Origin: Planctomycetota bacterium
GTDB taxonomy: Bacteria; Planctomycetota; JACOTG01
NCBI GenBank assembly: GCA_016178505.1
Contig: JACOTG010000201.1
Coordinates: forward strand, 2,413-66,412
Length of the DNA: 64,000 nucleotides
Direction: 5' to 3'
A program made the position numbers and the translations under genes. Within the stretch, counting starts at the first letter, position 1. Each line of letters starts with the position of its first letter. Under the pieces are notes generated by a model. The model saw only the letters and a program-made list of their open reading frames with translations. It made no database searches and was not told where the DNA came from. This document shows positions 33,586 to 53,690 of the stretch, piece after piece.

Positions 33586-33595
33586 GCGCGCGACG

Positions 33596-35416: not shown

Positions 35417-35432
35417 CCCTGGGCGCGACATA

Positions 35433-36530: not shown

Positions 36531-37393
36531 GCAGCATGCAGCGGAAGATCGCGGATCCGACGACGCTCGGCGAGTGCGTGCGGACGATGTTTCCGGAATC
36601 GTCGGGTCGGACGCGCAAGCAGTTCCTGGAAGCCGGGCGAGTGCGGGTGAACGGCGTCACGCAAAAGATCGCCCGCACGCCCCTCGCGGCCGGTGACGTC
36701 GTCGAGGTAGGCGATGGTGAGGTGTCGACGAAACTGCCGCGCGGCGTCGAGATCATCCACGAAGACGACGACCTCCTGGTGATCGTGAAGGGGCCGAACC
36801 TCCTCACCGTCGCCAGCGATCGCGTGCGCGACCGCACCGTTTATGCGTTCCTGACGGACTACGTCCAGAAGCGCGCGCCCGAGGCACGGGTCTTCATCGT
36901 TCATCGCCTCGACCGCCTCGCCTCTGGGCTGCTCGTGTTCGCGAAGACTCCGGAGATGAAGATCGCGCTCCAAGCGCAGTTCGAGGCGCACACGGCCGAG
37001 CGCGTCTACGTGGCCGTCGTCGAAGGCCGCCCCGAACGGCGAGAAGGGGTGATCGACAAGCGGCTGGCTGAAGATCCGACGTCGGGGAAAATGCGCGCAG
37101 CGCGCGCGACCGACGTCGAAGCGCGCGACGCCATCACCCGCTGGCGCGTGCTGCGCGAAGGCACACGTACGACCACCCTCGAAGTGCGCCTCGAGACGGG
37201 ACGCAAGAATCAGATCCGTGTCCACCTCGCGTCGGTCGGCCACCCGATCGTCGGCGACGAAACGTACGGCAGCCGCGTCGATCCCATTGGGCGCCTCGCG
37301 CTCCACGCACGGACGCTGGCGTTCGATCATCCGCGAACCGGCGCGAGACTCCGCTTCGAGTCTCCGCCGCCGAGCGCGTTCCAGAAGATCTGA
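36527..37393 (+). CDS. RluA-family 23S rRNA/tRNA pseudouridine synthase (RluC/RluD-like, S4 domain N-terminal)
   Basis: Catalytic motif HRLDRLASGLLVFAKT. S4-like RVRVNG. ATGA overlap with the upstream GT2 stop. Confidence 0.8.
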   Translation: MSSMQRKIADPTTLGECVRTMFPESSGRTRKQFLEAGRVRVNGVTQKIARTPLAAGDVVEVGDGEVSTKLPRGVEIIHEDDDLLVIVKGPNLLTVASDRVRDRTVYAFLTDYVQKRAPEARVFIVHRLDRLASGLLVFAKTPEMKIALQAQFEAHTAERVYVAVVEGRPERREGVIDKRLAEDPTSGKMRAARATDVEARDAITRWRVLREGTRTTTLEVRLETGRKNQIRVHLASVGHPIVGDETYGSRVDPIGRLALHARTLAFDHPRTGARLRFESPPPSAFQKI

Positions 37394-39645: not shown

Positions 39646-41274
39646 TTACATGCCCATGCCGCCGCCGTGCGGCATCGCGGGCATCTTTTCCTTCTCTTCC
39701 GGGATCTCGCTGATGAGAGCCTCGGTGGTGAGGAGGAGCGACGCGATTGACGCGGCGTTCTGGAGCGCCGAGCGCGTGACCTTCGTCGGATCGATGATGC
39801 CTTCCTTGACGAGGTCGAGGTATTGTCCGGTTCGCGCGTCGAAGCCCTCGTTGGCGTTCTTGGCCTCCTTGACGCGCTGGACGACGATCGCGCCGTCCAC
39901 GCCCGCATTGACCGCGATCTGGCGCAGGGGCGCCTCGACCGCGCGGCGAACGATGTCGACGCCGACCTTCTCGTCGCCGGTGAGCTTCAGCTTGTCGAGC
40001 GCCTTGCTCGCGCGAATGAGCGCGACGCCGCCGCCCGGCAGGATGCCTTCCTCGACGGCCGCGCGGGTCGCATGGAGCGCGTCTTCGACGCGCGCCTTCT
40101 TCTCCTTCATTTCGGTCTCGGTCGCTGCGCCGACGTTGATCTGCGCGACTCCGCCCGAGAGCTTCGCCAGGCGCTCCTGGAACTTCTCGCGATCGTAGTC
40201 GGACGTCGTGGCGTCGATCTCGCGCTTGATCTGGGCGATGCGGCCCTGGATGGCCGCGGTCTCGCCGGCGCCCTCGACGATCGTGGTGTTCTCTTTGTCG
40301 ACGACGATCTTCTTCGCTTGGCCGAGGTCCTCGATCTTCACGTTGGCGAGCTCGATCCCGAGATCCTCGAAGATCGCCTTGCCGCCCGTGCGGACGGCGA
40401 TGTCCTCGAGCATGGCCTTGCGGCGATCGCCGAACCCGGGAGCCTTCACGGCGCAGCACTCGAACGTGCCGCGCAGGCGGTTCACGACGAGCGTCGCGAG
40501 CGCTTCGCCTTCGACGTCTTCGGCGATGATGACGAGCGGCTTGCCCGCGCGGTGGATCTTCTCGAGCAGCGGCACGAGGTCCTTCACCGACGAGATCTTC
40601 TTCTCGTGGATGAGGACGTACGGCTTGTCGAGAACGGCCTCCATCGAGTCGTTCTTGTTCACGAAGTAGGGCGAGATGTAGCCCTTGTCGAACTGCATGC
40701 CCTCGACCCACTCGACGTTGGTCTCGAGCCCCTTTCCTTCTTCGACGGTGATGACGCCGTCCTTGCCGACCTTTTCCATGGCGTCGGCGATCTGCTTGCC
40801 GATCTCCTCGTCGTTGTTCGAGGCGATGGCGCCGACCTGCGCGATCTCCTTCTTGCCCTTCACTTCCTTGCTCATCGACTTCAGCTCGTCGATGATCGCC
40901 CCGACCGCCGCCTCGATGCCGCGCTTCAGCGAGATCGGATTCGCGCCTGCGGTGACGTTGCGCAATCCTTCCTCGAAGATGGCCTCTGCAAGAACGGTGG
41001 CCGTCGTCGTGCCGTCGCCGGCGATTTCCGACGTCTTGCTGGCGACTTCCTTCACCATCTGCGCGCCCATGTTCTCGTAGGCGTCCTGCAGCTCGATCTC
41101 CTTCGCGACGGTGACGCCGTCCTTGGTGACGGTCGGCGACCCGAAGCTCTTCTCGAGGATGACGTTTCGGCCGCGCGGGCCGAGCGTCACCTTCACGGCG
41201 CGGCTGAGCTTGCGCACGCCGCTGCGAATGGCTTCACGCGCTTCCTGGTCGAAGGCGATTTTCTTGGCGCTCAT
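39646..41274 (-). CDS. groL: chaperonin GroEL (60-kDa)
   Basis: [20 protein letters not shown]...GGGMGM C-terminus. Full-length unmistakable GroEL. Confidence 0.95.
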
Positions 41275-41347: not shown

Positions 41348-41653
41348 CTACTGGACGATGGCGAGGATGTCCTCTTCGGCCATGATCAAATAGCCTTCGC
41401 CGCCATGGCGAACTTCGGTGCCCGCGTACGAGTTGAAGATGACGCGGTCGTTCACCTTCACTTGGAACTCGACGCGCCGGCCGTTGTCGAGGACTCGACC
41501 TTCGCCGACGGCGACGACCTTGCCCTCGCGCGGCTTTTCCTTCGCCGTGTCGGGCAGGACGATTCCGCCCTTCGTGCGTTCCTCGGCCTCGAGGCGCTTG
41601 ATGAGGACCTTGTCGTTCAACGGTCGGATCTTCTCCGTCGCCATCTCGATCAC
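41348..41653 (-). CDS. groS: co-chaperonin GroES (10-kDa)
   Basis: [26 protein letters not shown]...[13 protein letters not shown]. Alternative start at ATG 41644 (MATEKIRPL). Confidence 0.9.
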
Positions 41654-42084
41654 TCCCTTCTATCTGGGTTCCTGTAGTAGCGTTCCAGTAGCATCTGGAC
41701 GCTGATTTTCACGACTTCCGCTTCGAACGGCTTCAAGATGATGGTGAACGCGCCCGCATCGAGCGCTTCGAGCTGCAGCTCCTTCGACTTGTCCGCGGTG
41801 AGGAAAATTGTCGGTGGCAGCGGATTGCGCACCTGATCGATCAGGCGCAGCGTCGCGAGCCCTGTGAGGTCGCGCATGTACATGTCGAGGATCAAGAGGT
41901 GCAGCGCCTCGATTCTTGCGATCTCGATGGCTTGCTTCCCGCAGTCCGCCTGCAGGACACGATGGCCTTCGCGATCGAGCAATCCTGTGACGGTTCGCCG
42001 GCACGCCGCGTCGTCGTCGGCGACGAGAATCGTGAACCGTTCGTGTGCCTCGTCTCGGCCCGGTAGCGTCGTTCGTATGGACAT
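41650..42084 (-). CDS. single-domain response regulator (CheY-like receiver), stop overlaps the groES start
   Basis: [20 protein letters not shown]...[13 protein letters not shown]...[29 protein letters not shown] (phospho-acceptor Asp in LILD, Thr/Lys motifs). The N-terminal extension of the ORF is rejected. Confidence 0.7.
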
Positions 42085-42381
42085 GACTTCGCCGATCCTA
42101 TCCGAGTGCGTGCGTCTTCGTATGGGGCCAGTATCAAACGCAGTGCCGATTCGACGCGGTCGTGGCGAGCATTCATAAACCCCAAAGAACAAAATGCTAA
42201 GAAGGTCGTGCCCAAGTTTCGTTCCAGGGCGTCGATGGGCCGCGTGCCAATCTGGCAGCCAACTCACGGTACCTCAGAAGGATTCTGTCAGAGTGTCAGT
42301 CGCCGATTCGCCGGCGGCTTGAAAGGACCGTGCGCGACGGTTAACGTCTGCGCGCACGTTCGGAGGGATGGAGTCAGAAGG

Positions 42382-43350
42382 GTGTCGATCATCGATCTTC
42401 GAAGACGCTGCCGCCGATGCATCGCGGTGTCCGTCGCGTTCGCGATGGTTGCCGCAGCTCCGTTGATTCTCGCGTCCGGCTGCGGCCGCGTCTCGCCGCG
42501 CGCGGCTGACGACGACGAGCCCACGGACGATCGGCCGGAGCTGGTTCGACGGTACGACATCCTCCGGAATCGGAATCCGATCGAATCGGAGCCCGTGCGG
42601 GAGACGCTTTCCGACGGATGGCGCCGCGCTCGATTCACGTTTCGTGGACAGAACCGGCGGGTGCTCACCGCGGAACTCGTGACGCCGCCGGCGACCGCGG
42701 GCGACGGCCCGGGCGCGATGGCGGTCGCCGTGTATCTCCTGCGAGCCGTCGAGACTCCGGACGTCGCACTCGAAGTCGCGCGCGGACTGCAACCCTTGCG
42801 CGTGGCGGTGCTGTCCTTTTCGCCCGAGAGCAGCGCGGGCTCGGCCTCTGCAAACGAGAAGCGAGAGACGCTCGAGAGAGATCGCCTCGCCGCACTCGAT
42901 GCACGGTTCGCGCTCGATGCGCTCGCCGCGTTTCCCGAGATCGATCGCGGTCGGATCGTCGTGATCGGCGCGAGTCAGGGCGCCGCACCCGCGTGCATCG
43001 TCGGGGGAGTCGACCCGCACGTGAACGGCGTCGTTTCCATCGTCGGAGGCGGCGACATCGCCGCCACGATGCGCGAGCGCTTCGCGGCGGATCCGGGCGA
43101 GCGCGCGGCCGAGATCAAGTCGGCGCTCAAGCGCATCGACCCGCGCGCCTACTTGCCATTTCTCGGGCCTCGTCCGATCCTGTTCGTTCAAGCGGAGCGC
43201 GACACGACTCCGCGTCCGCACGTGGAGTCGCTGATCGCGGCAGCGACGTCGAACAAGCACGTGGTCTGGCTCGACGAGGAGCATCGTTTTCCGTTCGACC
43301 GCGCAGCCCCTGCCGTGCGAGAGTGGCTGCGCACTCAACTGGGTTGGTGA
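42382..43350 (+). CDS. alpha/beta-hydrolase lipoprotein (dienelactone hydrolase / peptidase S9-like)
   Basis: Lipobox LILASGC. Nucleophile elbow VVIGASQGA. His near the C-terminus (DEEHRFPF). GTG start. Confidence 0.5.
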   Translation: MSIIDLRRRCRRCIAVSVAFAMVAAAPLILASGCGRVSPRAADDDEPTDDRPELVRRYDILRNRNPIESEPVRETLSDGWRRARFTFRGQNRRVLTAELVTPPATAGDGPGAMAVAVYLLRAVETPDVALEVARGLQPLRVAVLSFSPESSAGSASANEKRETLERDRLAALDARFALDALAAFPEIDRGRIVVIGASQGAAPACIVGGVDPHVNGVVSIVGGGDIAATMRERFAADPGERAAEIKSALKRIDPRAYLPFLGPRPILFVQAERDTTPRPHVESLIAAATSNKHVVWLDEEHRFPFDRAAPAVREWLRTQLGW

Positions 43351-43373
43351 CGTCGGCTGGAATGTCTGAGAAC

Positions 43374-43389
43374 GAGCGATCGCTCGCGA
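43374..43389. promoter_or_regulatory. perfect 12-bp palindrome GAGCGATCGCTC (plus TCGCGA) about 45 nt upstream of the FHA-activator gene, possible operator
   Basis: Read directly. Lies between the stop of the hydrolase gene and the RBS gagggagg of the next gene. Confidence 0.25.
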
Positions 43390-43428
43390 GAGCGACGGAC
43401 TCGGAATCCTGCGTGTGAGGGAGGTGGA

Positions 43429-45381
43429 ATGGCGCGTCTGATCCAACTTTCGGGGCCGTCGATCACGCCGGCGACCACCCGCAAGGCGGAGGTCACGTTC
43501 GGTCGCGATCGCACCAACGACTATCAACTCGGCGATCCGTCGACGTCGCGGACGCACGCCAAGATCGCGTTCGAGGGGGGGCGTTACACGCTCGTCGATC
43601 TCGGGAGCCGCAACGGGACCTATCACAACGGGGCGAAAGTGACGAAGGCCACGCCGTTGTCGAACGGCGACCTCGTGAAATTCGGCTACCCCGAATTCCG
43701 GTTCGAGTGCGCGACGCGCGAGCACGTGCCGGTGATCGAGCTCACGCGCGACAGCGCGACGGTGACCTCGATGCCGCAGGCGCCGCGGCCCGTGGCGTCC
43801 ACGCAAGAACGTTCGATCGGACCGGACGCCGCCGAGCTGACTGCGTTGCGCCGCGATCACGAGAAGCTGATGCTGCTTTACGAGATCGGCAAGGACGTGC
43901 ACACGGCGCTCGACGATCCAACCGCGCTCCTCAAGAAATCGCTCGAGATCGTGTTCAAGGTGCTCGACGCCGAACGGGCGTTCGTCGCCACGGTGGACCG
44001 CGACTCGGGCGCGCTCGTCTACGAGGAAGTGCGCGACCGCGACGGGAAAGACCTGGACGTCGAGAAGGAGATCCCGGTCAGCAAGACGATCACCCACGAC
44101 GTCGTGAAGAACAAGCGCGCGATCCTCACGCGCGATGCCGTGGCGGAGGAACAGTACCGGGGCATTCAGTCGATCGCGGACATGAAGCTGCTCTCGGCAA
44201 TGTGCGTTCCGCTGATGTATCGAGACCAGGCGCTCGGGATCCTCTATGCCGACAATCACGCGCAGCGAAATTGCTTTTCGCCTGCGGATCTCGAGTTCTT
44301 CGCATCGCTCGGACATCTCGTCGGCATCGCGCTCGGAAACGCGACGCTCTTCCGGCGCGAGCGCGAGGAGAAGGCCGCACTGATCGAGATCCTCGGCCAG
44401 GAAGTCGGCATGGTCGGGCGAAAGAGCGCGAGCATGCAGGCAGTCTTCGAGCAGATCGATCGCGTTGCGCCGAGCGAGGCAAACGTGATCATCACGGGCG
44501 AGTCGGGCGCGGGCAAAGAGCTCGTTGCACGCGCCATTCACAATCAATCGCATCGCAAGGCGAAGGCATTCGTCCCGGTCAACTGTGCGGCGATTCCGGA
44601 CACGCTCCTGGAGAGCGAGCTCTTCGGCTACGCGCCGAACTCGGGCATCTCGGGTGCGTCGCCGAAGGGCAAGCCGGGCAAGTTCGAGCTCGCGCACGGC
44701 GGGACGATCTTCCTCGACGAAATCGGCGACATGCCTCCGGCGACACAGGCGAAGATCTTGCGCGTCGTGCAGGATCGCCGCGTCGAGCGCCTGTCCGCGA
44801 CCGAACCGACCCAGGTCGACGTGCGCATCCTCTCGGCGACGAACCGAGACCTTTCGGAGGAGATCAAGGCCGGGCGCTTTCGGGAGGATCTCTTCTACCG
44901 GCTCAAGGTCGTGCAGGTCCACGTGCCGCCCTTGCGCGAACGCCGCGAGGACATTCCGGAGTTGGTCGAGTACTTCGTCCGCCGTGCGTGCGCGCGCAAC
45001 AACCGCTTCATCCGCGAGGTCCAGCAGAAGGCGATGGACCTCCTCCAGGGATATCCGTGGCCGGGCAACGTGCGAGAACTCGAGAACGCGATCGAAGCCG
45101 CGGTGGTCATGAGCGGCGGCCCGGTCGTCACGACCGACGTCCTGAGCGAACGGGTGCGGCAAGGACGCAAAGGAATCCCGTCACACTTGCCGACCTGGGA
45201 CGAAGAGGAGCGCCAGTATCTCCTTCGCGTGTTGCGTCACTGCAAGGGAGTGAAGTCGCACGCGGCCGACGTCACGGGGTTGGCCCGAAAGACGATCCAC
45301 GAGAAGATCAAGCAGCACAATCTGAAGCCGTCCGACTGGGGAGGCGCCGGGGACGACGAGCCCGAGGCCGGCTCGGATTGA
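43429..45381 (+). CDS. sigma-54-dependent transcriptional activator with N-terminal FHA domain and central GAF domain (FHA-GAF-AAA+-HTH)
   Basis: FHA: TFGRDRTNDYQLGDPSTSRTHAKIAFEGGRYTLVDLGSRNGTYHNG. GAF. Sigma-54 AAA+: IITGESGAGKELVARAIH, ESELFGY, ELENAIEAAV. C-terminal Fis-type HTH. Confidence 0.8.
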   Translation: MARLIQLSGPSITPATTRKAEVTFGRDRTNDYQLGDPSTSRTHAKIAFEGGRYTLVDLGSRNGTYHNGAKVTKATPLSNGDLVKFGYPEFRFECATREHVPVIELTRDSATVTSMPQAPRPVASTQERSIGPDAAELTALRRDHEKLMLLYEIGKDVHTALDDPTALLKKSLEIVFKVLDAERAFVATVDRDSGALVYEEVRDRDGKDLDVEKEIPVSKTITHDVVKNKRAILTRDAVAEEQYRGIQSIADMKLLSAMCVPLMYRDQALGILYADNHAQRNCFSPADLEFFASLGHLVGIALGNATLFRREREEKAALIEILGQEVGMVGRKSASMQAVFEQIDRVAPSEANVIITGESGAGKELVARAIHNQSHRKAKAFVPVNCAAIPDTLLESELFGYAPNSGISGASPKGKPGKFELAHGGTIFLDEIGDMPPATQAKILRVVQDRRVERLSATEPTQVDVRILSATNRDLSEEIKAGRFREDLFYRLKVVQVHVPPLRERREDIPELVEYFVRRACARNNRFIREVQQKAMDLLQGYPWPGNVRELENAIEAAVVMSGGPVVTTDVLSERVRQGRKGIPSHLPTWDEEERQYLLRVLRHCKGVKSHAADVTGLARKTIHEKIKQHNLKPSDWGGAGDDEPEAGSD

Positions 45382-45385: not shown

Positions 45386-46030
45386 CTATTTCTTCGGTTT
45401 GACCTGCACCCAGTTTTCCTTCTCGTCCTGGTACCAATAGCCGACGGGCGCCTCTTCGACCCACTTCTTCGCGAAGATCGATTGGATGCGCGGCACGTCG
45501 GCGGCCGAAATGTCGTTGGCGACGGCGAGCTCTCGGTAGAGCGCACTGCGATCGGCGTTTTCGGCGTCGACGAGCCGTCGCGCCTCCGTCTTGTCCTTCA
45601 GAGTGACGCCGTCGATCTCGCGAACCCCGAGGTTGCCGTTCTTGAGGATTCCGACGAGGCCCTTCTCGTAGAGCGGCTTCAACTTCTCGAGTCGCTCCTT
45701 CTGCGAGGCCTGGATCTTCTTCACGGCCGGGCTCGAAGCGTTCAAGTTGATCGGCTTGTCTTGGAGAGCAAGCTCCGCCGCATACACCGGGCGATCGAAC
45801 AGCGAGGCGAGGAAGCCCGTCTTCGGCGGCTCCTTTGCATCGGTCGATTCGGGTGACGGCACCGTCGAGTTGGGGTCGGCGGTCTCGACCGAGCTCTGGT
45901 AGTACTCGCGAGCCATCTTCCTCGCCAAGGCTTCCAACTCGGTCGCCGGGAAATTGACGGTCACGTAGAAGCAGCCAGTCACGATCGCCAGGAGGGCGAG
46001 GCACGCCGGTCTAGTCGTCATGCGGTTCAT
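45386..46030 (-). CDS. YdbL-like lipoprotein (DUF1318 family)
   Basis: Lipobox LAIVTGC. C-terminal region ADRSALYRELAVANDISAADVPRIQSIFAKKWVEEAPVGYWYQDEKENWVQV resembles E. coli YdbL (ERKASYQQLAKQNNVSVDDIAKLAGQKLV...GEYVQGINGKWVRK). Confidence 0.6.
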   Translation of the reverse strand: MNRMTTRPACLALLAIVTGCFYVTVNFPATELEALARKMAREYYQSSVETADPNSTVPSPESTDAKEPPKTGFLASLFDRPVYAAELALQDKPINLNASSPAVKKIQASQKERLEKLKPLYEKGLVGILKNGNLGVREIDGVTLKDKTEARRLVDAENADRSALYRELAVANDISAADVPRIQSIFAKKWVEEAPVGYWYQDEKENWVQVKPKK

Positions 46031-46105
46031 GGTTCGTTTGCTCCTGTTGTTCGAGATGCCGCAATCGTGGACGACATTCTAGCACTCGCCTCGAGATCAT
46101 CCGGG

Positions 46106-49100
46106 TCAGTCGGTTTTCTTGGCGTGCGCGCTTCGGATCTCCGCGATGAACTCGTCGAACGAAACGCCGAAGACCGCCGGATTGATCTTGATCGCGAGCC
46201 GAGGAAGCAAGCCAGCGGGGAGCAGTAGATACTCCTGCACTCCTTCCAGTTGTCGGAGCGGCCACGTGAATCGATCGGGCGTTCCGAACAGATCGTTGCC
46301 GTCCGCATCGAATCGACCGTGAAACTGGAAGATCCCGTTTTGGAGTGCGATCGCTGCGCCGATCTTCGAGTAGCGGAATGCGCCGAGGAAGTTCGCAAGA
46401 TGGCCCTGCAGAGTCAGGCGTCCTTCGGTGCTCAGATACGGGATCTGTTGCAGCGCTTTCAGGCCGACGATCTGCTTCGAGCGACCGTCGACGGTTCGAA
46501 ACCGCGCGAGGAATCGCTCGAGCTCGCCGGCGCCGATCCAGACGTACGGGACGTCGGCCTCGACGATTCCACGGACTTCGCCGTAGTCGAAGATCGTGGA
46601 CACGCGCTCGAGATCGACGTCCCACGCGGTCAGCGAGGTCTTGAATCGAGCGAGAGAACTGAACGGATGGTCGCCGGAGACGTCGCCGATCTTCACGTGA
46701 CCGCCGAATGCGCTGACGATCGTGTCGCCGCGCACGCGCAGCTGCGCCACCGAAGCGGATACCGCCAGTTCTGTCGGCGTGAGCATCGTCGCGTCGAACG
46801 GATACTTCGCTGCGAGTTCGGGAATCATTTGCGAGACCCGAAGACCGGAGAATCCGACGTCGGCGACGAGCATCACGCGATTGGCGACGTCGTCGAGCGT
46901 GTCCTCGGCGCGGATGCCGACGCGCTGAAGGGAGATGTCTCCGCCGAATCCCGAAAGGCGGATCGGCTCGAGGGACGTCTCGTTCTGCCATCCGCCTTCG
47001 GCTGGGCGAAACACGAGCCGCAGATGATCGCCGTGCACGGAACCGACGCGAAGCGATGAGACCGCGACCGTCGCGGTGTCGGCGGGCGCGGGCACGCCAA
47101 TCCCGAGCGGGACGTCGGCGTCGAGCATTTCCAAGTCGAGCGATTCGCCGTGCACGGCGACGTCGTGGAGACGGACTCGGCCGTTCATCGTCGTCGGCGC
47201 GTCGTGACGCAGGCGTGCGTCGACGTTCGCCTCGGCGCGGCCCGAGACGCGCAGCGCGGCGATCTTGGGCTCGGAGTCCTGCACGTTCGGCACGACGAGC
47301 GCTCGAAACGCCGCATCGAAATCGGGAACCGATGCGTGCAGTGCGATCGCCGCGTCGGGGGCCGTTCGTAGCCCCGTCGCCGATCCGGAGACGTCGGCGT
47401 CGACGAGCCCACCGAACGAAACGCGCGACGAGCGAAGCTCGAGTCGATCGGCGTCGAGGTCGTAGCTGCCGCCGGAGTCGAGCGACAGGGCGGTGATCGT
47501 GGCGTCGATGCTGTACTTCTTCGCAACGCCGAAGAAGCCGGTCGCGTTCCCGCGAACCGCGAGGTCGAGCCGCCGGCGGTCGGAGAGCGTCCCGTCGATC
47601 GAGAGAGTAGCCGCGACGCCGTCGGCTTCGACGTCGGCGAGTGCGAAGCCGATGCCGCCGAGGGTGACGTCGCCCGCGAGCCGGTGAGCGTTCGCTTCGT
47701 CCGATCGGTCATAGGCCAGCCGACAACCGAGCGTCCCGCGCATGGACGGAACGACGTGCGCGAGGGAGACGTCGCTGGCCGTAAGCGTTCCCGTGCGGAC
47801 GGCGCGATCGACGATGCGAAGACGAGTTTCGAGGCGGCCGAGCGTCGGCGACGTGATCGTGACGCCGGCCTCGACGTCTCCCGCTGCCGAGGCACTGCGC
47901 GCGGTTGCGTCCACGGTCGCGTCGGCGGTGCCGCCGCCCAGTGCGGCCGCGAGCTCGACGCCGTGTACGTCGCCTTTCGCGGTCGCACGCCAGCCTCCGT
48001 CGACCGCGCGCGCGAGGTTGGCGACCAGCGATGCACGGCCGTTCACGAGCCGTGCGGGGGCTTCCGGCGAATTCATGCCCGTGAGATCGACGTGCATTTC
48101 CGCGGCGACGTCGCCGTCGCGAGACGTTTCGAATCGATCGACCCGAATCGTCGCGTGCCCGGCGACGGGCGAGCCCCAGGGCGCGAGGTCGGTCTCGATC
48201 GTCGTGGGACGCGTGAGAATCGCTCGGGCATCGGCGACGTTCAGTGAGACGGAGGCGTCGCGCAGCTCCACGAGGCGGATCTGGGCGCGTTCGATCCCGG
48301 CGCTGACGACCTCGTTAACCACGGACACGTCGGCCACGACGTCGACGGGTGTTCGACCGATCGGCTCCGGAAACGTCGCAGAATCGATGTGAATGCGAAC
48401 GTGACCCGCGACTCCAGAGCCTTCGAGGGTCGCATCCGCCTCGATCTCCGACGCGCCGCCGACGGTGCCCGAGGGCACGCCGAGTGCATCGAGGAGCTCG
48501 AGCGGTGGGTTCGCCGCACGCGCGACGAGATGGAGTCGTCGCTGCGCGTCGACCGCGATGTCGAGTCGACACGGGCCGATCGATCCGCTCAGGGTGGCGC
48601 TCGTGAGTCCCGACCCGCCGAGCGTCGCCTCCCCGCGAACGTCCGAAAGCCGAATGGTTCGTCCTCGCCTCACGAAATTCACGACGCCGCTCTCGACCTC
48701 GACCCGATCGACGCGTGCGCCAGCGTTGCCCGTCCTACCCTTGCCGAGGCGAGAGAAAACGTCCGCGAGGTCATGCGTGCGGTCGAGATCGACGGCGACT
48801 TCGAGTCCCCGTACGACGATGCTCTCCACGTGGGGCGAGCCGGACGCGAGGGTGCGGGTATCGAATCGAGCGTCCACGAGTTCCGCACGCGCGGCAATGG
48901 CGTCGCCTGAATTGCCGAGCTCGACGTTTCCGATCGATGCGCGGCCCGGCGAGACGCCGAGGCCGCGAAGCTCGCCGGCGACGCGAAGTCCGGTGGCGTC
49001 CGAGGCCCGTCGAAGCAGGGACGGCCAAGCGAACGTGCGCACGAGCTGCGGGAGGAAGGCCCACGCTGCGGTCAAGAGCGCGACGATTGCCGCCGCAGCG

Positions 49101-49138
49101 ACGATGGTCCGGCGAGGCCAGCGTCTCGTTTTGGGCAT
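46106..49138 (-). CDS. large AsmA/YdbH-family inner-membrane-anchored protein (1010 aa)
   Basis: N-terminal TM anchor RRTIVAAAAIVALLTAAWAF, long repetitive beta-rich body. Synteny with the ydbL-like gene immediately downstream, as in the E. coli ydbH-ynbE-ydbL operon. Confidence 0.55.
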   Translation of the reverse strand: MPKTRRWPRRTIVAAAAIVALLTAAWAFLPQLVRTFAWPSLLRRASDATGLRVAGELRGLGVSPGRASIGNVELGNSGDAIAARAELVDARFDTRTLASGSPHVESIVVRGLEVAVDLDRTHDLADVFSRLGKGRTGNAGARVDRVEVESGVVNFVRRGRTIRLSDVRGEATLGGSGLTSATLSGSIGPCRLDIAVDAQRRLHLVARAANPPLELLDALGVPSGTVGGASEIEADATLEGSGVAGHVRIHIDSATFPEPIGRTPVDVVADVSVVNEVVSAGIERAQIRLVELRDASVSLNVADARAILTRPTTIETDLAPWGSPVAGHATIRVDRFETSRDGDVAAEMHVDLTGMNSPEAPARLVNGRASLVANLARAVDGGWRATAKGDVHGVELAAALGGGTADATVDATARSASAAGDVEAGVTITSPTLGRLETRLRIVDRAVRTGTLTASDVSLAHVVPSMRGTLGCRLAYDRSDEANAHRLAGDVTLGGIGFALADVEADGVAATLSIDGTLSDRRRLDLAVRGNATGFFGVAKKYSIDATITALSLDSGGSYDLDADRLELRSSRVSFGGLVDADVSGSATGLRTAPDAAIALHASVPDFDAAFRALVVPNVQDSEPKIAALRVSGRAEANVDARLRHDAPTTMNGRVRLHDVAVHGESLDLEMLDADVPLGIGVPAPADTATVAVSSLRVGSVHGDHLRLVFRPAEGGWQNETSLEPIRLSGFGGDISLQRVGIRAEDTLDDVANRVMLVADVGFSGLRVSQMIPELAAKYPFDATMLTPTELAVSASVAQLRVRGDTIVSAFGGHVKIGDVSGDHPFSSLARFKTSLTAWDVDLERVSTIFDYGEVRGIVEADVPYVWIGAGELERFLARFRTVDGRSKQIVGLKALQQIPYLSTEGRLTLQGHLANFLGAFRYSKIGAAIALQNGIFQFHGRFDADGNDLFGTPDRFTWPLRQLEGVQEYLLLPAGLLPRLAIKINPAVFGVSFDEFIAEIRSAHAKKTD

Positions 49139-49142
49139 TCGC

Positions 49143-50252
49143 TCAACTCGCCGGCGCGACCAGCGCGGCGCAACACGCCGTCATCGCCGCGTCGACGGTC
49201 ACGAAGTCGAGGCAAACCGCGCGTGGACACGCGCGCCTCCGGCACGGGCTGCAGGGAACGTTCGCGCTGACCGCCGAACTGCCCGGCAGTCGCGGGCCGT
49301 AGACGTCGGGATCCTTCGGGCCAAAGAGAATGACGACCCGGGTCCCGGCCGCTTCTGCGAGGTGCAGCGGTCCGGTGTCGCCGCCGACCACGAGGTCGGC
49401 CTCACCGAGGATCGCAGCCAACTCGACGAGCGCCTCGGCTCTCGGCGCCAGCCACGACTCTTCGCGCATGTGACGCCGGACGGACTCGGCGAGGGCGCGC
49501 TCGCCGGGGCCGTACGTGACGACGATCGTCGCGTCGTGCTCGCGCCGGAGCCGATCGCCGAGCTCCGCGAGCCGCTCGACTCCCCAGCGCTTGAAAGCCC
49601 CGTACGCCGACGTGCTCGGATGGATCACGATGCGCGGGCCGGCGCCGGGGAGCGCTCCCCAAAAGGCGCGGGCGGCGCCGATCGCCGCATCGGGGACGTC
49701 GAGGTGCAAGTCGAGCGTCGCGGGCGGCGCGACCCCGAGCGGCGCCAGCAGCGAGAGGTCCTTGTCCATCCGGTGGCGAATGCCGGGCGGGACGATCACC
49801 CGATCCGTTTGAAAGCGACTGTTTCCCTCGCGACCGCTGCGGGAAGCGAATCCGATTCGCCGGGGCGCGGCCGCCGCGACGACCGCGAGCGCGCTCTTGG
49901 CATTCGATTGAAAGTCGAGCGTGACGTCGAATCGGCGGCGCCGGAGCGAACGGTAGAAGCGAAACATCTCGACGAGCGTCGGCACGAATCGAATCGGCGA
50001 GCGAAGTCCGGCGACGAATCGACGCCGCGGAAAAACGATTCGGTCATCCACTTCCAGAACGCGATCCACGATTGCCGCGGCGCGATCTTCGGTGAGCCAG
50101 GTCAAGTGGGCATCGGGGTAGGCTCGACGGAGCGCGCGGACCGCCGGCAACGCGAACAGCACGTCGCCGATCGCGCTGAGCCGGATCACGAGGATTCGCG
50201 GACCCGACCGAGCGGCCGGATTGCCGGTGGAGCGAGCATCGAGCGAGATCAC
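49143..50252 (-). CDS. glycosyltransferase family 9 (ADP-heptose:LPS heptosyltransferase-like)
   Basis: RILVIRLSAIGDVLFALPAVRALRRAYPDAHLTWL N-terminus and C-terminal GGDTGPLHLAEAAGTRVVILFGP, both diagnostic for GT9. Start set at GTG (residue 40 of the ORF). Confidence 0.65.
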   Translation of the reverse strand: MISLDARSTGNPAARSGPRILVIRLSAIGDVLFALPAVRALRRAYPDAHLTWLTEDRAAAIVDRVLEVDDRIVFPRRRFVAGLRSPIRFVPTLVEMFRFYRSLRRRRFDVTLDFQSNAKSALAVVAAAAPRRIGFASRSGREGNSRFQTDRVIVPPGIRHRMDKDLSLLAPLGVAPPATLDLHLDVPDAAIGAARAFWGALPGAGPRIVIHPSTSAYGAFKRWGVERLAELGDRLRREHDATIVVTYGPGERALAESVRRHMREESWLAPRAEALVELAAILGEADLVVGGDTGPLHLAEAAGTRVVILFGPKDPDVYGPRLPGSSAVSANVPCSPCRRRACPRAVCLDFVTVDAAMTACCAALVAPAS

Positions 50253-50419
50253 GAGGACGGGATTATATGAAAGAAGCCGCGCCGGGATGTTCGAGTGCCG
50301 ATTCTGCGGTCGAAGGTCGCCGATCCGGGGCAGCGGCGTCTTGCTGCGCTCCGGACGTCGGTGCGACAATCGCGCGCCGCACGGCTGGAGGATTTCGAAT
50401 CTATTCGGAGCGGGTGTTC

Positions 50420-51031
50420 ATGACGAACCCCACTCGAGGCGACGTGACGCGGCTCCTCGACTCGGCCGAGCGCGGCGACGAAACCGCGGCGACGTTGCTT
50501 CTTCCGATCGTCTACGACGAGCTTCGGCGGCTTGCTCGCAGTCGCCTCGCGCGTGAGCCGGCGGGGCAGACGCTTCAAGCAACGGCGCTCGTCCACGAGG
50601 CCTACGTGCGGCTCGTCGGCGAGGAGGGGGCACGATTCGATGGCCGGGCGCACTTCTTTGCCGCTGCGGCCCGTGCGATGCGTCGAATTCTCGTCGAGCG
50701 GGCACGTCACCACGGACGGCGGAAGCGCGGCGGCGGGCGCGATCGGCTGTCTCTTTCGGACGTGGCGCTTTCGTCGGGCGACGACGCATCGTCCGTCGAC
50801 GTCCTCGACCTCAACGAGGCGCTCGAGCGGCTCGCCCGCTACGACGAGCGAAAGTGCGACGTCGTGTCGCTGCGTTTCTTCGCCGGCCTCGATATCGACG
50901 AGATCGCGCGAGCGCTCGGCGTCTCACGGGCGACGATCAAGGCCGACTGGAGCTATGCGCGAGCATGGCTGCACCGCGAGCTGACGAAGGGCGACACGCG
51001 CTTCGACGCCGGGGCAAACGATGAGTGCTGA
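50420..51031 (+). CDS. ECF-type RNA polymerase sigma factor of the Ser/Thr-kinase-associated family (TIGR02999-like)
   Basis: DVTRLLDSAERGDETAATLLLPIVYDELRRLA N-terminus typical of this ECF group. Region 2/4 helices. Overlaps the downstream kinase gene by 11 nt. Confidence 0.75.
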   Translation: MTNPTRGDVTRLLDSAERGDETAATLLLPIVYDELRRLARSRLAREPAGQTLQATALVHEAYVRLVGEEGARFDGRAHFFAAAARAMRRILVERARHHGRRKRGGGRDRLSLSDVALSSGDDASSVDVLDLNEALERLARYDERKCDVVSLRFFAGLDIDEIARALGVSRATIKADWSYARAWLHRELTKGDTRFDAGANDEC

Positions 51032-53690
51032 GGGTGCGCGACGAGCCGAGGATCTCTTCCTCGCGGCGTTGGATGTGTCTGCGGCCGAGCGCCCCGGGTT
51101 TCTCCGCGAGCGATGCGGCGACGACGACGAGCTTCGCGTGGAAGTCGAGTCGCTTCTCGCCCATCACGTCGAGTCGACGGGATTCCTCGAGACGCCGATC
51201 GCCGAAGCGATCTCACCGCCGGTTCCCGAGCGCATCGGCGACTACGCGATTCGCGGCATGGTCGGCGAGGGGGGCATGGGCGTCGTCTATCTCGCCGAGC
51301 AGGAGAACCCACGCCGGACGGTCGCGCTGAAGATGATTCGTCCGGGTCTTGCCTCCCGAGAAACGCTTCGTCGATTCGAGCGAGAGGCCCGGCTCATCGG
51401 CCGACTCCAGCATCCCGGGATCGCGCAGATCTTCGAGGCGGGAACTGCGGATGCCGGTCTCGGCCCGCAGCCGTTCTTCGCAATGGAGCTGATCCGTGGA
51501 CGCACGCTCATCGAGCACGCCGAATCGGAGAGGCTCGGCATCCGAGAGCGACTTTCGCTCTTCGTCAGAGTGTGCGTCGCCGTGGAGCACGCGCACCGAG
51601 CGGGCGTGATCCACCGCGACCTGAAGCCGAGCAACGTCCTCGTCGATGCGACCGGTCAACCGAAGGTGATCGACTTCGGGGTGGCGCGCGCGACGGACTC
51701 GGGCGTCGAAGGGACGACGCTGCGAACGGACGTCGGCCGGCTCATGGGCACGTTGCCGTACATGAGCCCCGAGCAGTGCGCGGCGAGCCCGGAGTCGATC
51801 GATGCGCGTTCGGACGTCTATGCGCTAGGCGTGATCGGCTACGAGCTGCTCACGGGCAAGCTGCCGCTCGACGTCGGCGAACGGCCTCTCCTGGAGGCCG
51901 CTCGAATCGTTCGGGAGGACGATGCGACGCCGCTGTCGTCCTACGGCGCGATCTTCCGCGGCGACCTCGAGACGATCTTCGCGAAAGCGCTCGAGAAGGA
52001 TCGCGCCCGGCGATACGCGAGCGCCGGTGAGCTGGCTCGGGACGTCGATCGTTTTCTGAGGGACGAGCCGATCTTCGCGCGCCCCGCGAGCACCTTCTAC
52101 CACCTCGACAAGTTCGCGCGCCGAAACCGGGCTCTCGTCGCCGGCGTCGCCGCTGCTTTCGTCACGCTCGCGTCCGGAATCGTCGGAACGACGTGGCAAT
52201 GGCGTGCCTCGGTGAAAGAACGCCGGCGCGCCGAATCCGCCGAGACGCTGGCCACGAGACGTCTCGAGGAGGTGACGAAGGCAAAGGACCTGGCACAGGC
52301 ACGCGCCGACGAGTCGACGACGATGTTCGACTTCCTGCGTGACATGCTCGTGGCCGTCGATCCGAAGGCACTCGGGCGCGACGTCAAGGTCGTCGACGTC
52401 CTCGACGCCGCCTCGAAGAAGGTCGACTCGGCGGTCGCCGGGCATCCCGTGATCCAGGCAAAGCTCGATCAAGCGATCGGCGTGACGTACGACGGGTTGG
52501 GCCGGTTCGACGAGGCCGAGGCTCGCCTGCGAGCGGCGCTCGCGCTTCGACGCGGTCTCGGAACCGACGACGATCGCGACCTTCTCGCCGTGAAAAACGA
52601 TCTCGGCCAGGTGCTCACGGACAAGGGCGAACCCGGAAAAGGAGAGGAGGTGCTGCGTCCCATTCTCGCAAGACTGCTCGCTCGATACGGCGAGTCGGAC
52701 GCCCTCACGCTCGCCGCGATGAACAATCTCACGCTCGCGCTGTTTCTCCAAAAGAAGCTCGACGAGGCGGAGTCGCTGGGCCGGCGTGCGCTGGAGCTCC
52801 GTCGCCGCCATCTCGGCGACCGCGACGCGGAAACGCTCGTCTCGATGGAGACCCTTGCAGAGATCTTGCAGGCGAGCGGCAGGTTTCGCGACGCCGAGAC
52901 GCTGTTCAAGGCGGCGCTCGCAGGGCAGTACGAGGTGTCGGGCGCCGACGACCCCTACACGATCGCCGCGACGAACAACCTGTCGGCGCTTTACGAGGAC
53001 ATGGATCTTCCCGATCGCACCGAGCCCCTCATTCGCCGAGCGCTCGATGCCGCACGACGAGTGTTCGGCCCCCAGCACGTGAACACGTGCCGATCGATGC
53101 ACGGGCTCGCATTGCACCTCTACCAAAAGGGAAGCTACGCCGAAGCCGCGGATCTCGAGCGTCGTGCTCTGCCCGGTTTTCGCCTCGCTCTCGGCGACGA
53201 TCACGAGGACACCCGCTTCGCCATGCGACTCCTCGCCAGAGCGCTGCGGGCGCTGAACCAACTCGACGAGTGCGAGGAACGCTATCGCGAGGTGCTTGCG
53301 GCGTATCGTCGTGCTGAAGGGGATGACTCGCGGACGACCATCGCCGTGAAGTTCCAGCTCGCCGTCTGCCTGATGTCGGAGGGCAAATTTGCGGAGGCCA
53401 ATGGGCTCTTCTCGGAGACGTTGGAGTCAGGCCGGCACGTGCTGCCGCCCGCATCGGACGACCTCGCGCTGTACGAGCAATTCTATGGACGATGCCTGCG
53501 GTTCGAAGAGCGATTCGACGAAGCCGAGCCCCATCTGCTCGAAGGGTACCGCCGGCTGAACGAGGCGTACGGAGCGCGCCATGACCGCGTCGTCGACGCG
53601 ATCGGCGACCTTGTCAACCTGTACGAGAAGTGGGGCAAACCCGAAAAGGCAGCGGAGTATCGAGTGCTCGTGCCCGCCGAGCCGAAGTGA
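51021..53690 (+). CDS. Ser/Thr protein kinase with single TM helix and extracytoplasmic TPR domain
   Basis: GEGGMGVVYLA, HRDLKPSNVLV, DFGVA, GTLPYMSPEQ. TM LVAGVAAAFVTLASGIVG. More than 10 TPR-like repeats C-terminal. Confidence 0.8.
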   Translation: MSAEGARRAEDLFLAALDVSAAERPGFLRERCGDDDELRVEVESLLAHHVESTGFLETPIAEAISPPVPERIGDYAIRGMVGEGGMGVVYLAEQENPRRTVALKMIRPGLASRETLRRFEREARLIGRLQHPGIAQIFEAGTADAGLGPQPFFAMELIRGRTLIEHAESERLGIRERLSLFVRVCVAVEHAHRAGVIHRDLKPSNVLVDATGQPKVIDFGVARATDSGVEGTTLRTDVGRLMGTLPYMSPEQCAASPESIDARSDVYALGVIGYELLTGKLPLDVGERPLLEAARIVREDDATPLSSYGAIFRGDLETIFAKALEKDRARRYASAGELARDVDRFLRDEPIFARPASTFYHLDKFARRNRALVAGVAAAFVTLASGIVGTTWQWRASVKERRRAESAETLATRRLEEVTKAKDLAQARADESTTMFDFLRDMLVAVDPKALGRDVKVVDVLDAASKKVDSAVAGHPVIQAKLDQAIGVTYDGLGRFDEAEARLRAALALRRGLGTDDDRDLLAVKNDLGQVLTDKGEPGKGEEVLRPILARLLARYGESDALTLAAMNNLTLALFLQKKLDEAESLGRRALELRRRHLGDRDAETLVSMETLAEILQASGRFRDAETLFKAALAGQYEVSGADDPYTIAATNNLSALYEDMDLPDRTEPLIRRALDAARRVFGPQHVNTCRSMHGLALHLYQKGSYAEAADLERRALPGFRLALGDDHEDTRFAMRLLARALRALNQLDECEERYREVLAAYRRAEGDDSRTTIAVKFQLAVCLMSEGKFAEANGLFSETLESGRHVLPPASDDLALYEQFYGRCLRFEERFDEAEPHLLEGYRRLNEAYGARHDRVVDAIGDLVNLYEKWGKPEKAAEYRVLVPAEPK

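Follow-up and report, generated by a model that had tools for sequence, protein, structure and literature searches.

A planctomycete FHA-GAF enhancer-binding protein with a variant L1 loop as a candidate activator of a neighbouring REC-groESL operon

The gene at positions 43429-45381 of a 64-kb stretch of planctomycete DNA (hereafter the window, 64,000 nucleotides analysed as a whole) encodes a transcriptional activator whose most likely target is the neighbouring chaperonin operon. We give even chances to a model in which the protein is an activator of a sigma-54 chaperone regulon gated by Ser/Thr phosphorylation, and in which it is not the dedicated partner of the kinase fusion encoded at 4926. 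In the proposed mechanism, its Fis-type HTH would bind two dyads that lie 41 nt from each other within the divergent region, about 1.2 kb upstream, as suggested by synteny and phylogenetic footprints, and the AAA+ ring, placed about 104 nt upstream, would activate the sigma-54 -24/-12 promoter of an operon comprising a REC gene and groES-groEL. The FHA domain, whose contact residues are intact, would read Ser/Thr phosphorylation and thereby gate the activity. The most economical ligand would be its own disordered linker at T125, phosphorylated by some Hanks kinase, and binding of pT125 could take place in cis, on the model of GarA/OdhI, or across protomers, on that of Rad53/Chk2 or Rv1747, and might either relieve a GAF-mediated repression or promote ring assembly. 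To contact sigma-54 the protein would use a non-canonical L1 loop, SGISGA, which is itself seen in the sequence. Rather doubtful, and put forward only tentatively, is the broader proposal of a Planctomycetota lineage with a sigma-54-run groESL (in relatives also dnaK and hsp20), an FHA-GAF activator switched by linker phosphorylation and a functional SGISGA loop.

The gene and the parts of its product are:
43429-45381, plus strand, FHA-GAF-AAA+-HTH activator gene, an ORF of 650 aa
43492-43686, plus strand, FHA domain, residues 22-86 (Pfam PF00498, E 2.9e-20)
43750-43827, plus strand, disordered FHA-GAF linker, residues 108-133
43801-43803, plus strand, codon of T125 in this linker
43915-44334, plus strand, GAF domain, residues 163-302 (Pfam, E 7e-15)
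44422-44919, plus strand, Sigma54_activat AAA+ domain (PF00158), residues 332-497 (Pfam, E 3.1e-64)
44641-44658, plus strand, L1 loop motif S405-G-I-S-G-A410, replacing GAFTGA
residues 503-581, AAA_lid_14 (Pfam, E 5.7e-26)
45202-45315, plus strand, Fis-type HTH_8, residues 592-629 (Pfam)

As judged from this domain order, the product is a bacterial enhancer-binding protein of the widespread, uncharacterised FHA-GAF-AAA+-HTH architecture, and it matches to 100% an NCBI protein named 'MAG: sigma 54-interacting transcriptional regulator [Planctomycetes bacterium]'. The FHA-GAF activator architecture as such is already known and common in metagenomes; more than 90 clusters were found in a protein search. 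An overlapping minus-strand ORF of 962 aa (42274-45162) was set aside as a high-GC shadow ORF because of its Arg-rich composition and a codon-position GC of 0.66/0.44/0.84, which favours the plus frame. In the AF2 model the FHA beta sandwich extends over residues 1-107 (pLDDT 83-92), linker residues 112-130 are disordered (pLDDT below 50), and the GAF domain is followed by a helix (285-326) running into the AAA+ domain. In the GAF domain, Cys259 shows at least 90% conservation across 150 homologs.

The N-terminal FHA domain announced in a preliminary description of this DNA is confirmed as canonical by Pfam and by alignment, and the Arg/Ser/His/Asn pattern of pThr binding is complete, with every contact residue present (G25-R26, S40-R41-T42-H43, N62-G63-T64). 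In an alignment with GarA, Rv0020c, EmbR and Rad53, these residues line up with GR / SRRH / NGT of mycobacterial FHA domains, among them GarA (Rv1827), and they are invariant in 10 orthologs. With a canonical FHA domain and intact contact residues, the term pThr reader on a sigma-54-type activator is a fair description. Within the linker the motif P-V-A-S-T125-Q-E-R-S-I is conserved, A123 and T125 being invariant and I130 nearly so in the 10 orthologs, and the invariant T125 is a candidate phospho-acceptor. Linker motifs of the form T....[ILV] occur in 84 of 130 FHA-GAF activators vs 51 +/- 5 in shuffles, an enrichment inflated by the kinship of the 130 sequences. The T-Q-E-R at T125 departs from the classic pT+3 hydrophobic rule, and the conservation of T125 could have a cause other than phosphorylation.

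Aligned with ZraR (E 5e-76), NifA and NtrC1, the AAA+ domain has Walker A (GESGAGKE, 357-364), Walker B (TIFLDEI, 426-432), the arginine finger region and sensor II intact, and E453-R454, R485/D487/R491 and W544-P-G-N-x-R-E-L-E552 are invariant in the orthologs. The canonical GAFTGA is missing from the same alignment; in SGISGA the F is changed to I and the T to S, and one residue is added on each side, so that the loop is two residues longer. This type of loop is conserved in about 40 related clusters, and the 10 orthologs show no change at S405, G406, I407, G409, P412 and GKPGK. A representative search with the AAA+ domain found the variant in 9 of the 150 best clusters; the group is modest in size and the AAA+ domain otherwise ordinary. 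Monophyly of the SGISG-loop proteins was recovered in 57 of 100 bootstraps with the loop columns and in 0 of 100 with these columns masked, where all ten SGISG representatives fell into a 12-taxon split with just two canonical-loop sequences. The SGISG-loop proteins are near relatives, with strict monophyly rejected and a single origin not proven. The genes of a second sub-clade (P0063, P0064, P0076) keep a ClpC-like gene and a TPR operon as syntenic neighbours, and neither a -24/-12 element nor a dyad was found conserved near them. A literature search found no paper on an SGISGA/SGISGS loop in the context of sigma-54 activators, and the reading of the loop variant given here appears to be new. 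According to the literature summary of Francke et al. 2011 (PMC3162934), the Phe of GAFTGA is replaced by Y, other replacements being inactive; F to I thus counts as inactivating there, and the protein might not activate sigma-54 at all. No rpoN gene lies within the 64-kb window, and the presence of sigma-54 is implied by the canonical GAFTGA of the kinase fusion in the same window.

The putative target operon and its candidate cis elements are:
41650-42084, minus strand, REC single-domain response regulator gene (144 aa), first gene of the operon
41348-41653, minus strand, groES (Cpn10)
39646-41274, minus strand, groEL (Cpn60)
42133-42148, minus strand, sigma-54-like -24/-12 element CGGCAC-TGCGT-TTGAT, 49-64 nt upstream of the REC start codon
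42244-42258, minus strand, proximal dyad CTGCCAGATTGGCAC, candidate upstream activator site
42285-42299, minus strand, distal dyad CTGACACTCTGACAG, candidate upstream activator site, centred 41 nt away from the proximal dyad

The operon starts about 1.3 kb upstream of the activator gene and in divergent orientation. In all six orthologous loci examined (the window, L001, L002, L003, L088 and L089) the activator gene lies within 5 kb of REC-groES-groEL, being divergent from it in L001 (75% identity) and L002 (47%) and 5 kb away in L003, L088 and L089 (46-47%). Two copies of a dyad of the type CTGCCAG-N-CTGGCAG precede REC-groES-groEL, and 104 nt separate the centre of the proximal one from the GG of the -24 element downstream. 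Such a tandem dyad with a -24/-12 element, both as candidate sites only, adjoins the activator gene in 6/6 loci, with an inter-dyad spacing of 41-42 nt and a distance from proximal dyad to GG of 104-105 nt (95 nt in L002). The core TGCCA-N3-TGGCA of the proximal dyad is unique in the 64-kb window, occurs once each in L001, L002 and L003, always upstream of REC, and has a one-mismatch version in L088 and L089. Four of the six loci match the consensus TGGCAY-N5-TTGC (TGGCAC/T-N5-TTGC in L002, L003, L088 and L089), the -12 element being TTGA, not TTGC, in the window and L001. A sigma-54 promoter scan of the whole window is uninformative on its own, because it gave 14 matches (<=2 mismatches) vs 13.7 expected; only the site at 42133-42148 is conserved among them. 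Neither a CIRCE/HrcA operator nor a sigma-70 consensus was found upstream of REC-groESL. Of 150 aligned homologs, only the ten orthologs linked to groESL have the recognition helix A-R-K-T-I-H-E-K-I-K, of the type (S/A)RKT(I/L/V)HEK. The proposed link between activator and groESL promoter, which we regard as new, is drawn from proximity and co-conservation, and another activator could serve the promoter. The L1 variant, T125 and the REC-groESL linkage were all absent from the preliminary description. A profile search of genome contigs with the ortholog alignment mostly returned unrelated activators via generic peptides (ESELFGYA, VNCAAIP[DE]T).

The full dyad was also found in 3 among the 120 metagenome-contig matches listed vs about 0.06 expected by our own estimate; this search used a shorter pattern, and most of the 120 matches listed were random and filtered afterwards. 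Two of the three precede Hsp20 and Hsp70 (dnaK) genes, with both dyad and promoter in place, on short contigs without assigned taxonomy and without the activator gene. The occurrence of the dyad-plus-promoter module before hsp20 and dnaK would point to a chaperone or proteostasis regulon.

Two further features lie directly upstream of the activator gene:
43374-43385, palindrome GAGCGATCGCTC, a chance occurrence outside the proposed system
42106-43350, plus strand, esterase/peptidase_S9-like lipoprotein gene, probable start ATG 42445

The perfect palindrome GAGCGATCGCTC, to which attention had been drawn earlier, does exist 44 nt before the ATG and is really the 14-mer CGAGCGATCGCTCG; it is at chance level and not conserved. 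The window contains 49 perfect 12-nt palindromes vs 46 +/- 7 expected and 18 perfect 14-mers vs 12.6 +/- 4.1, and the upstream regions of the 84%, 75% and 47% orthologs lack GAGCGATCGCTC, which ruled it out as an operator. The esterase/peptidase_S9-like gene stands on the same strand as the activator gene, likewise in L002 and L006, and may be co-transcribed with it. Downstream, the activator gene is followed by DUF1318/YdbL and a 1010-aa YhdP/DUF748-like gene in the window, L001, L006 and L007, and by a GT9 heptosyltransferase gene in L003, L088 and L089.

There is little probability, in our judgement, that the FHA domain is a phosphorylation-independent module for protein-protein contact or oligomerisation and that the GAF domain alone regulates the protein, through a small ligand or Cys259 redox. 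Such a role has been proposed for some secretion-system FHA-like domains, and the secondary Pfam match of the activator FHA to Yop-YscD_cpl, the high conservation of Cys259 and the existence of SGISG-loop relatives without FHA (P0086-P0094) are consistent with it. However, the invariance of the pThr-contact residues in 10 orthologs would be unexpected if phosphate binding had been lost, and the conserved Thr in the disordered linker also argues for phospho-reading. Somewhat more weight is due to the reading that the protein is not sigma-54-type but a sigma-70 AAA+ regulator or a repressor, with another, canonical activator serving REC-groESL, which we nevertheless consider unlikely. In its favour are the SGISGA loop with its longer span, the statement that only Tyr replaces Phe (PMC3162934), and the lack of a sigma-54 consensus near the members of other SGISG sub-clades. 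But whereas TyrR and VpsR have deleted or degenerate loops, this one is lengthened and strongly conserved, and the invariant S405, G406, I407, G409, P412 and GKPGK argue for a constrained contact surface. Moreover, Ile retains the hydrophobic character of Phe, the remaining sigma-54 AAA+ motifs are all intact, and no regulatory feature near the orthologs is conserved except the consensus -24/-12 element, accompanied by dyads at enhancer distance. Hardly probable is a control of the envelope genes (DUF1318/YdbL, YhdP/DUF748-like, GT9), with the groESL link as mere lineage synteny. The recurrence of these genes next to the activator and the frequent linkage of sigma-54 with envelope functions (PMC3162934) would favour it, whereas the genes are convergent with the activator, have no -24/-12 match or dyad upstream in any locus, and vary between two locus types while REC-groESL and the cis module stay constant.

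It had also been suggested that the activator and the kinases of the window form a matched writer/reader pair. The proteins in question are:
4926-10292, plus strand, kinase fusion Pkinase-AAA_16-TPR-GAF-Sigma54-HTH with canonical GAFTGA (Pfam)
51021-53690, Pkinase-TPR protein (Pfam)

Both indeed carry Pkinase domains by Pfam. That the fusion at 4926 and/or the kinase at 51021 is the writer, and the FHA activator its dedicated, EmbR-PknH-like reader, nevertheless seems very unlikely to us. In its favour, both proteins with a GAF-AAA+-HTH module lie in one 64-kb window, the FHA residues are intact, and the sister genome GCA_973473515.1 carries both genes. The modules are, however, not as clearly paralogous as had been stated: identity is 39% over 523 aa (38-40%), with 31% in GAF and 56% in AAA+, which is the level of GAF activators from other phyla and gives no sign of a special paralogy. 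The linker is not similar either, since the one between GAF and AAA+ has about 47 aa in the fusion vs 27-30 aa in the FHA activator, with 29 gap positions in the BLAST alignment. When 183 sequences were compared, the fusion came 93rd among the neighbours of the FHA activator and the latter 147th among those of the fusion, and the two were never sisters in 100 bootstraps; they are distant relatives and not close paralogs. Further points against a dedicated pair are the different recognition helices (ARKTIHEKIK in the FHA activator vs SLASIYVKIK in the fusion) and L1 loops, the distance of 33 kb between the genes and their location on different contigs in the sister assembly, and the different orthology, with FHA activator orthologs at 45-47% and full-length matches of the fusion at about 30% after one 60% ortholog. 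Nor is a Hanks kinase a conserved neighbour, as none lies within 10 kb of the ortholog in L001, L002, L003, L088 or L089, the five other loci with flanking DNA on both sides. Kinase fusions form more than 120 clusters, and Planctomycetota are rich in kinases, with about 100 in Gemmataceae (PMC11032199); hence, two kinases in 64 kb carry no information. The idea of a shared chassis survives at family level, where the GAF-AAA+-HTH module of the fusion is most like FHA-GAF activators, and fails for this pair, since its closest relatives (45-51%) belong to a different FHA-GAF clade of Planctomycetota. An exchange of FHA and kinase-STAND-TPR heads has evidently taken place on this type of GAF-AAA+-HTH chassis, and this interchangeability is the remaining point in favour of a pair.

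Returning to the model of a phosphorylation-gated chaperone activator, its implications would be twofold. For sigma-54 specialists GAFTGA, and its Phe above all, defines the contact and is essential to it, and proteins lacking the motif are dropped from genome surveys (PMC3162934, PMC12316311). If the SGISGA group beside consensus -24/-12 promoters is functional, such filters would miss real activators, and SGISGA would be a natural variant for probing the engagement of sigma-54 region I by L1. Moreover, heat-shock control in Planctomycetota is essentially uncharted, and an enhancer with a sigma-54 promoter before REC-groESL, dnaK and hsp20 would provide a concrete regulon, which suggests that Hanks-kinase signalling could be tied to proteostasis. 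Collectively, the heat-shock response would then have a eukaryote-like kinase input and a natural alternative interface between activator and sigma-54.

Knowledge of sigma-54 activators with an FHA domain goes back to 2005, when Jelsbak, Givskov and Kaiser reportedly described FHA-domain enhancer-binding proteins of Myxococcus xanthus. The planctomycete activator shares with them the N-terminal FHA, the sigma-54 AAA+ and the C-terminal HTH, as well as a presumed Hanks-type Ser/Thr kinase input in a kinase-rich organism, and differs by the GAF domain between FHA and AAA+, the non-canonical L1 and the candidate chaperone target. In GarA/OdhI, Rv1747 and Rad53/Chk2 the FHA domain binds pThr on its own disordered extension. 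GarA is the best sequence match of the activator FHA (E 2.5e-10), and by analogy the conserved Thr within a disordered segment of the activator's own chain might play a similar role; however, this segment is C-terminal to the FHA domain, not N-terminal as in GarA, T-Q-E-R-S-I is unlike ETTS, and the output would be an AAA+ ring instead of enzyme inhibition, so that the comparison is entirely inferential. EmbR of Mycobacterium is an FHA-containing regulator that docks on the phosphorylated kinase PknH, and its FHA matches that of the activator at E 3.9e-6. Here, too, an FHA domain may couple a DNA-binding regulator to a Hanks kinase, although EmbR is a SARP/OmpR-type sigma-70 activator and no cognate kinase is identifiable for the planctomycete protein.

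A functional precedent for sigma-54-dependent chaperonin genes is provided by Bradyrhizobium, where NifA/sigma-54 controls one groESL copy (groESL3). The GAF-helical linker-AAA+-HTH layout of the activator is that of NifA, NorR and FhlA, and NifA (structure 9qq6) is the second-best PDB match to its AAA+ domain (E 1.2e-71); the extra FHA head and the SGISGA loop set it apart. NorR uses its GAF domain to repress the AAA+ domain, the GAFTGA surface being the target (PMC2941729). Sigma-54-family AAA+ domains without canonical GAFTGA are likewise present in TyrR, DhaR, HupR, VpsR (structure 7v2b) and Rhodobacter NtrC, which have deleted or degenerate loops and act with sigma-70 (PMC3162934). Unlike these proteins, the activator has a longer and highly conserved loop that keeps G-x-x-G-A, and its gene adjoins a consensus sigma-54 promoter. 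Finally, the kinase-STAND-TPR-GAF-sigma54 fusions ('PknK-like' in the JGI annotation) share the type of chassis and a Ser/Thr-kinase signalling input, and differ by their 38-40% identity, canonical GAFTGA, longer GAF-AAA+ linker and other recognition helix, their chassis being nearest to another FHA-GAF clade and not to that of the activator.

The activator is encoded by an ORF of 650 aa at 43429-45381 (+), whose codon-position GC of 0.66/0.44/0.84 singles it out as the true coding frame from several high-GC shadow ORFs that overlap it, and the identical NCBI protein is named 'MAG: sigma 54-interacting transcriptional regulator [Planctomycetes bacterium]'. Its architecture is a common and known one, with the following Pfam domains:

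Residues 22-86: FHA
Residues 163-302: GAF
Residues 332-497: Sigma54_activat
Residues 503-581: AAA_lid_14
Residues 592-629: HTH_8

The AF2 model (150-sequence alignment, mean pLDDT 87.6) contains a confident FHA sandwich at residues 1-107, followed by the GAF domain, a long helix (285-326), the AAA+ domain, the lid and the HTH. The full set of phospho-threonine-contact residues (G25-R26, S40-R41-x-H43, N62-G63-T64) is present in the FHA domain, matches GarA/Rv1827 and other mycobacterial FHA domains residue by residue in the alignment, and is invariant in all ten orthologs. The previous reading of the protein as a phospho-threonine reader on a sigma-54-type activator is hence retained. According to tblastn, the window contains one FHA domain, two GAF-sigma54 modules and two Hanks kinases. 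The GAF domain also carries Cys259 (SAMC259VPL; codon 44203-44205), which is conserved in at least 90% of 150 FHA-GAF activators, has an equivalent in the kinase-fused activator (LC-TPF) and might serve as a redox or ligand site.

What is new in this protein is a conserved L1 loop that is not GAFTGA. The region reads FGYAPN-SGISGA-SPKGKPGKFE, and HMMER alignments to ZraR, NifA and NtrC1 place S-G-I-S-G-A opposite G-A-F-T-G-A, with one additional residue on each side; the kinase fusion has RGAFTGA. S405, G406, I407, G409, P412 and G414-K-P-G-K418 are invariant in the ten orthologs, and of 240 retrieved homolog clusters some 40 have the motif FGY-x-x-x-SGI(S/A)G-x-x-P-x-GKPGKFE, with FHA-GAF, GAF-only or REC N-termini. 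The group is of modest size, because only 9 of the best 150 representatives (50%-identity clusters) in an AAA+ search have the variant loop. It was monophyletic in 57 of 100 bootstraps with the loop columns and in none of 100 with them masked; in the latter case all ten SGISG representatives fell within a 12-taxon split that included only two canonical sequences. These proteins are close relatives that may or may not share a single origin. Regarding function, mutational work summarized by Francke et al. 2011 states that 'F3 is replaced by Y ... (other replacements inactive)', and GAFTGA integrity served as filter for true activators in that study (PMC3162934) as well as in a 2025 survey (PMC12316311). 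The SGISGA loop was not mentioned in the literature searched. On the present reading, the target would activate sigma-54 despite the absent Phe. Two side observations concern related proteins. The top-scoring AAA+ representatives P0241-P0256 have two to three sigma-54 AAA+ stretches per polypeptide of 580-1027 aa and are tandem activator domains. A second SGISG-loop FHA-GAF sub-clade (P0063, P0064, P0076; loci L004, L210, L211) has the recognition helix NRSTLYEKIR and its own conserved synteny: a ClpC-like AAA+ chaperone is encoded 6-8 kb upstream, a SIS-domain gene lies downstream, and a divergent operon of three genes includes one for a TPR protein; a sigma-54 consensus was not found at these three loci.

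The second new feature is the strong and conserved association of the activator with a sigma-54/enhancer module that precedes a REC-groES-groEL operon. The gene order in the window is:

39646-41274 (-), groEL
41348-41653 (-), groES
41650-42084 (-), single-domain REC gene
42106-43350 (+), esterase-like lipoprotein gene
43429-45381 (+), activator
45386-46030 (-), DUF1318/YdbL gene
46106-49138 (-), 1010-aa DUF748/YhdP-like (AsmA-like) gene
49143-50369 (-), GT9 heptosyltransferase gene

The orthologs in L001 (75% identity) and L002 (47%) are likewise divergent from REC-groES-groEL, and in L003, L088 and L089 (46-47%) the operon lies 5 kb upstream of the ortholog with GT9 downstream; in L006 and L007 (84%) the available sequence is too short on the REC-groESL side. 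The single-domain CheY-like response-regulator gene opens the operon in 6/6 loci. The minus-strand genes at 45386-50369 are convergent with the activator and syntenic in L001, L006 and L007, with GT9 alone also found in L003, L088 and L089; the cluster resembles the E. coli ydbH-ynbE-ydbL envelope-lipid system. Further away, a polysaccharide/O-antigen-type cluster (28534-37393; epimerase, B12-radical SAM enzyme, ABC-2/Wzt pair, GT2 glycosyltransferases) is followed by a pseudouridine synthase gene, whose synteny with groESL extends to L002, L003, L088 and L089.

The DNA upstream of REC is diverged among the loci except for conserved blocks. One of them is a CTGCCAG-N-CTGGCAG-type dyad. A single copy of its core, TGCCA-N3-TGGCA, is present in the 64-kb window (at 42245-42257) and likewise a single one in each of L001, L002 and L003, always upstream of REC, while L088 and L089 have CTGTCAGACTGGCAG; with one mismatch allowed, 0.73 copies of the core are expected per window. 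A second, weaker dyad or half-site is centred 41-42 nt from the first in 6/6 loci. Downstream of the proximal dyad centre, at 104-105 nt (95 nt in L002), follows a -24/-12 element, which in the window is situated 49-64 nt before the REC ATG. Taken together, the six loci (159 kb) contain eight matches to GGCAY-N5-TTG[CA], and six of these matches are the sites upstream of REC; neither a CIRCE element nor a sigma-70 consensus was found upstream of REC-groESL. Judged from the sequence, the arrangement has the layout that textbooks give for an enhancer-dependent promoter.

REC genes (coordinates in the respective locus) and upstream -24/-12 elements
Window: REC 41650-42084 (-); CGGCAC-N5-TTGAT
L001: REC 9108-9527; CGGCAC-N5-TTGAT
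L002: REC 6845-7393; TGGCAT-N5-TTGCT
L003: REC 4637-5035; TGGCAC-N5-TTGCG
L088: REC 3861-4334; TGGCAC-N5-TTGCG
L089: REC 4473-4871; TGGCAT-N5-TTGCT

Some other activator could use the site upstream of REC. However, the target is the sole regulator gene that is constantly near the dyad/promoter module across two locus layouts, and among 150 aligned homologs the recognition helix (S/A)RKT(I/L/V)HEK(I/V)K is found in exactly the ten groESL-linked orthologs, while other sub-clades have NRSTLYEKIR, SKPTLYEKIR or TRQTLDNKIK and the fusion SLASIYVKIK. Activators are also usually encoded beside the genes that they control (PMC3162934), and from these three observations we infer that the target would bind the dyads upstream of REC. 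The same module also precedes dnaK and hsp20 on other metagenome contigs. A metagenome scan with a short dyad pattern gave at least 120 matches, mostly random. Three of the 120 listed also had the full dyad, whereas by our own estimate, based on the 5.5 additional bases that it specifies, about 0.06 would be expected. All three have the same dyad and a consensus sigma-54 promoter at a dyad-to-GG distance of 96-97 nt, with no distal dyad evident; downstream are an Hsp20 gene in L136 (4361-5045; Pfam E 2e-22), a DnaK/Hsp70 gene in L152 (minus strand; E 2.5e-48) and a secreted-protein gene in L209 (minus strand). Hence, the module marks chaperone genes beyond groESL. The regulon would answer to proteotoxic stress.

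The preliminary description had regarded the activator as matched reader to the kinase fusion at 4926-10292, with 'clearly paralogous' modules and similar GAF sequence and linker. The kinases themselves were correctly described, the fusion being Pkinase-AAA_16(STAND)-TPR-GAF-Sigma54-HTH and the protein at 51021-53690 Pkinase-TPR. However, the target and the fusion share only 39% identity over 523 aa (BLASTP; GAF 31%, AAA+ 56%), and the GAF-AAA+ linker of about 47 aa in the fusion versus 27-30 aa in the target produces 29 gap positions. Compared with the target, full-length FHA-GAF activators of other lineages reach 40-47% identity and GAF-only ones labelled Bacteroidota or Caldithrix about 40%, so that 39% is, in these comparisons, background level. 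In an alignment of 183 module sequences the fusion came 93rd when neighbours were ranked from the target, and the target 147th when they were ranked from the fusion; in neighbour-joining of 57 thinned sequences (100 bootstraps) the smallest split with both always comprised at least 23 taxa. The similarity thus does not exceed generic EBP conservation, an outcome that the preliminary description had itself named as refuting, and the specific pairing has to be abandoned. With the fusion module as query, at least the best 100 matches were other FHA-GAF activators from Planctomycetota (45-51%), all with canonical GAFTGA, which points to an exchange of FHA and kinase-STAND-TPR heads; what survives at family level is that both heads sit on the same kind of GAF-activator chassis. 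The FHA-GAF activators form more than 90 clusters and the kinase fusions more than 120, from Planctomycetota, Polyangia/'Deltaproteobacteria' and Acidobacteria, with fusion-family proteins of 1600-1800 aa. The sole clear ortholog of the fusion, P0388 (60%), belongs to the same sister assembly as the 75% ortholog of the target, on a different contig. Moreover, a Hanks kinase was not a conserved neighbour in L001, L002, L003, L088 or L089, a PP2C phosphatase was absent from the 64-kb window, and two nearby kinases are no evidence of pairing because Gemmataceae have about 100 kinases (PMC11032199). A weak tblastn match to the 51021 kinase domain at 59618-59803 (37% over 62 aa, E 6e-5) may represent a third, diverged or partial kinase, and the fusion has a T-rich stretch, APATTTAAG, directly before its GAF helix.

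The palindrome reported upstream of the activator, GAGCGATCGCTC, does exist at 43374-43385 and is in fact the 14-mer CGAGCGATCGCTCG. Its occurrence is attributed to chance, since the window holds 49 perfect 12-nt palindromes versus 46 +/- 7 expected (14-mers, 18 versus 12.6 +/- 4.1; first-order Markov model) and the segment of about 55 nt bearing it is missing upstream of the 84%, 75% and 47% orthologs. Five perfect 16-nt palindromes are located at 160, 2520, 29450, 47145 and 58757.

A candidate input to the FHA domain lies within the activator itself. Residues 112-130, in the FHA-GAF linker, have pLDDT below 50. Orthologs with no other linker sequence in common all keep A123 and T125, and nearly all keep I130 (VAS-T-QERSI, CAQ-T-IEFSL, LAA-T-QVGTI, VAT-T-RVGSI). 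Linkers of other FHA-GAF clades carry different conserved Thr motifs, for example K-T-R-R-I-P-I-L and R-T-I/M-R/E-L/I; of 130 linkers, 84 contain T....[ILV] (shuffles, 51 +/- 5) and 77 contain T..[ILVM] (shuffles, 58 +/- 5), counts that are inflated by kinship. It might well be that T125 becomes phosphorylated and is then read by the FHA domain, which would be a natural means to control AAA+ ring assembly. A conserved Thr in a disordered segment beside an intact FHA domain suggests, by analogy, recognition of the linker by the protein's own FHA, after phosphorylation and either by self-recognition, the GarA/OdhI mode, or from one protomer to another, the mode of Rv1747, Rad53 and Chk2.
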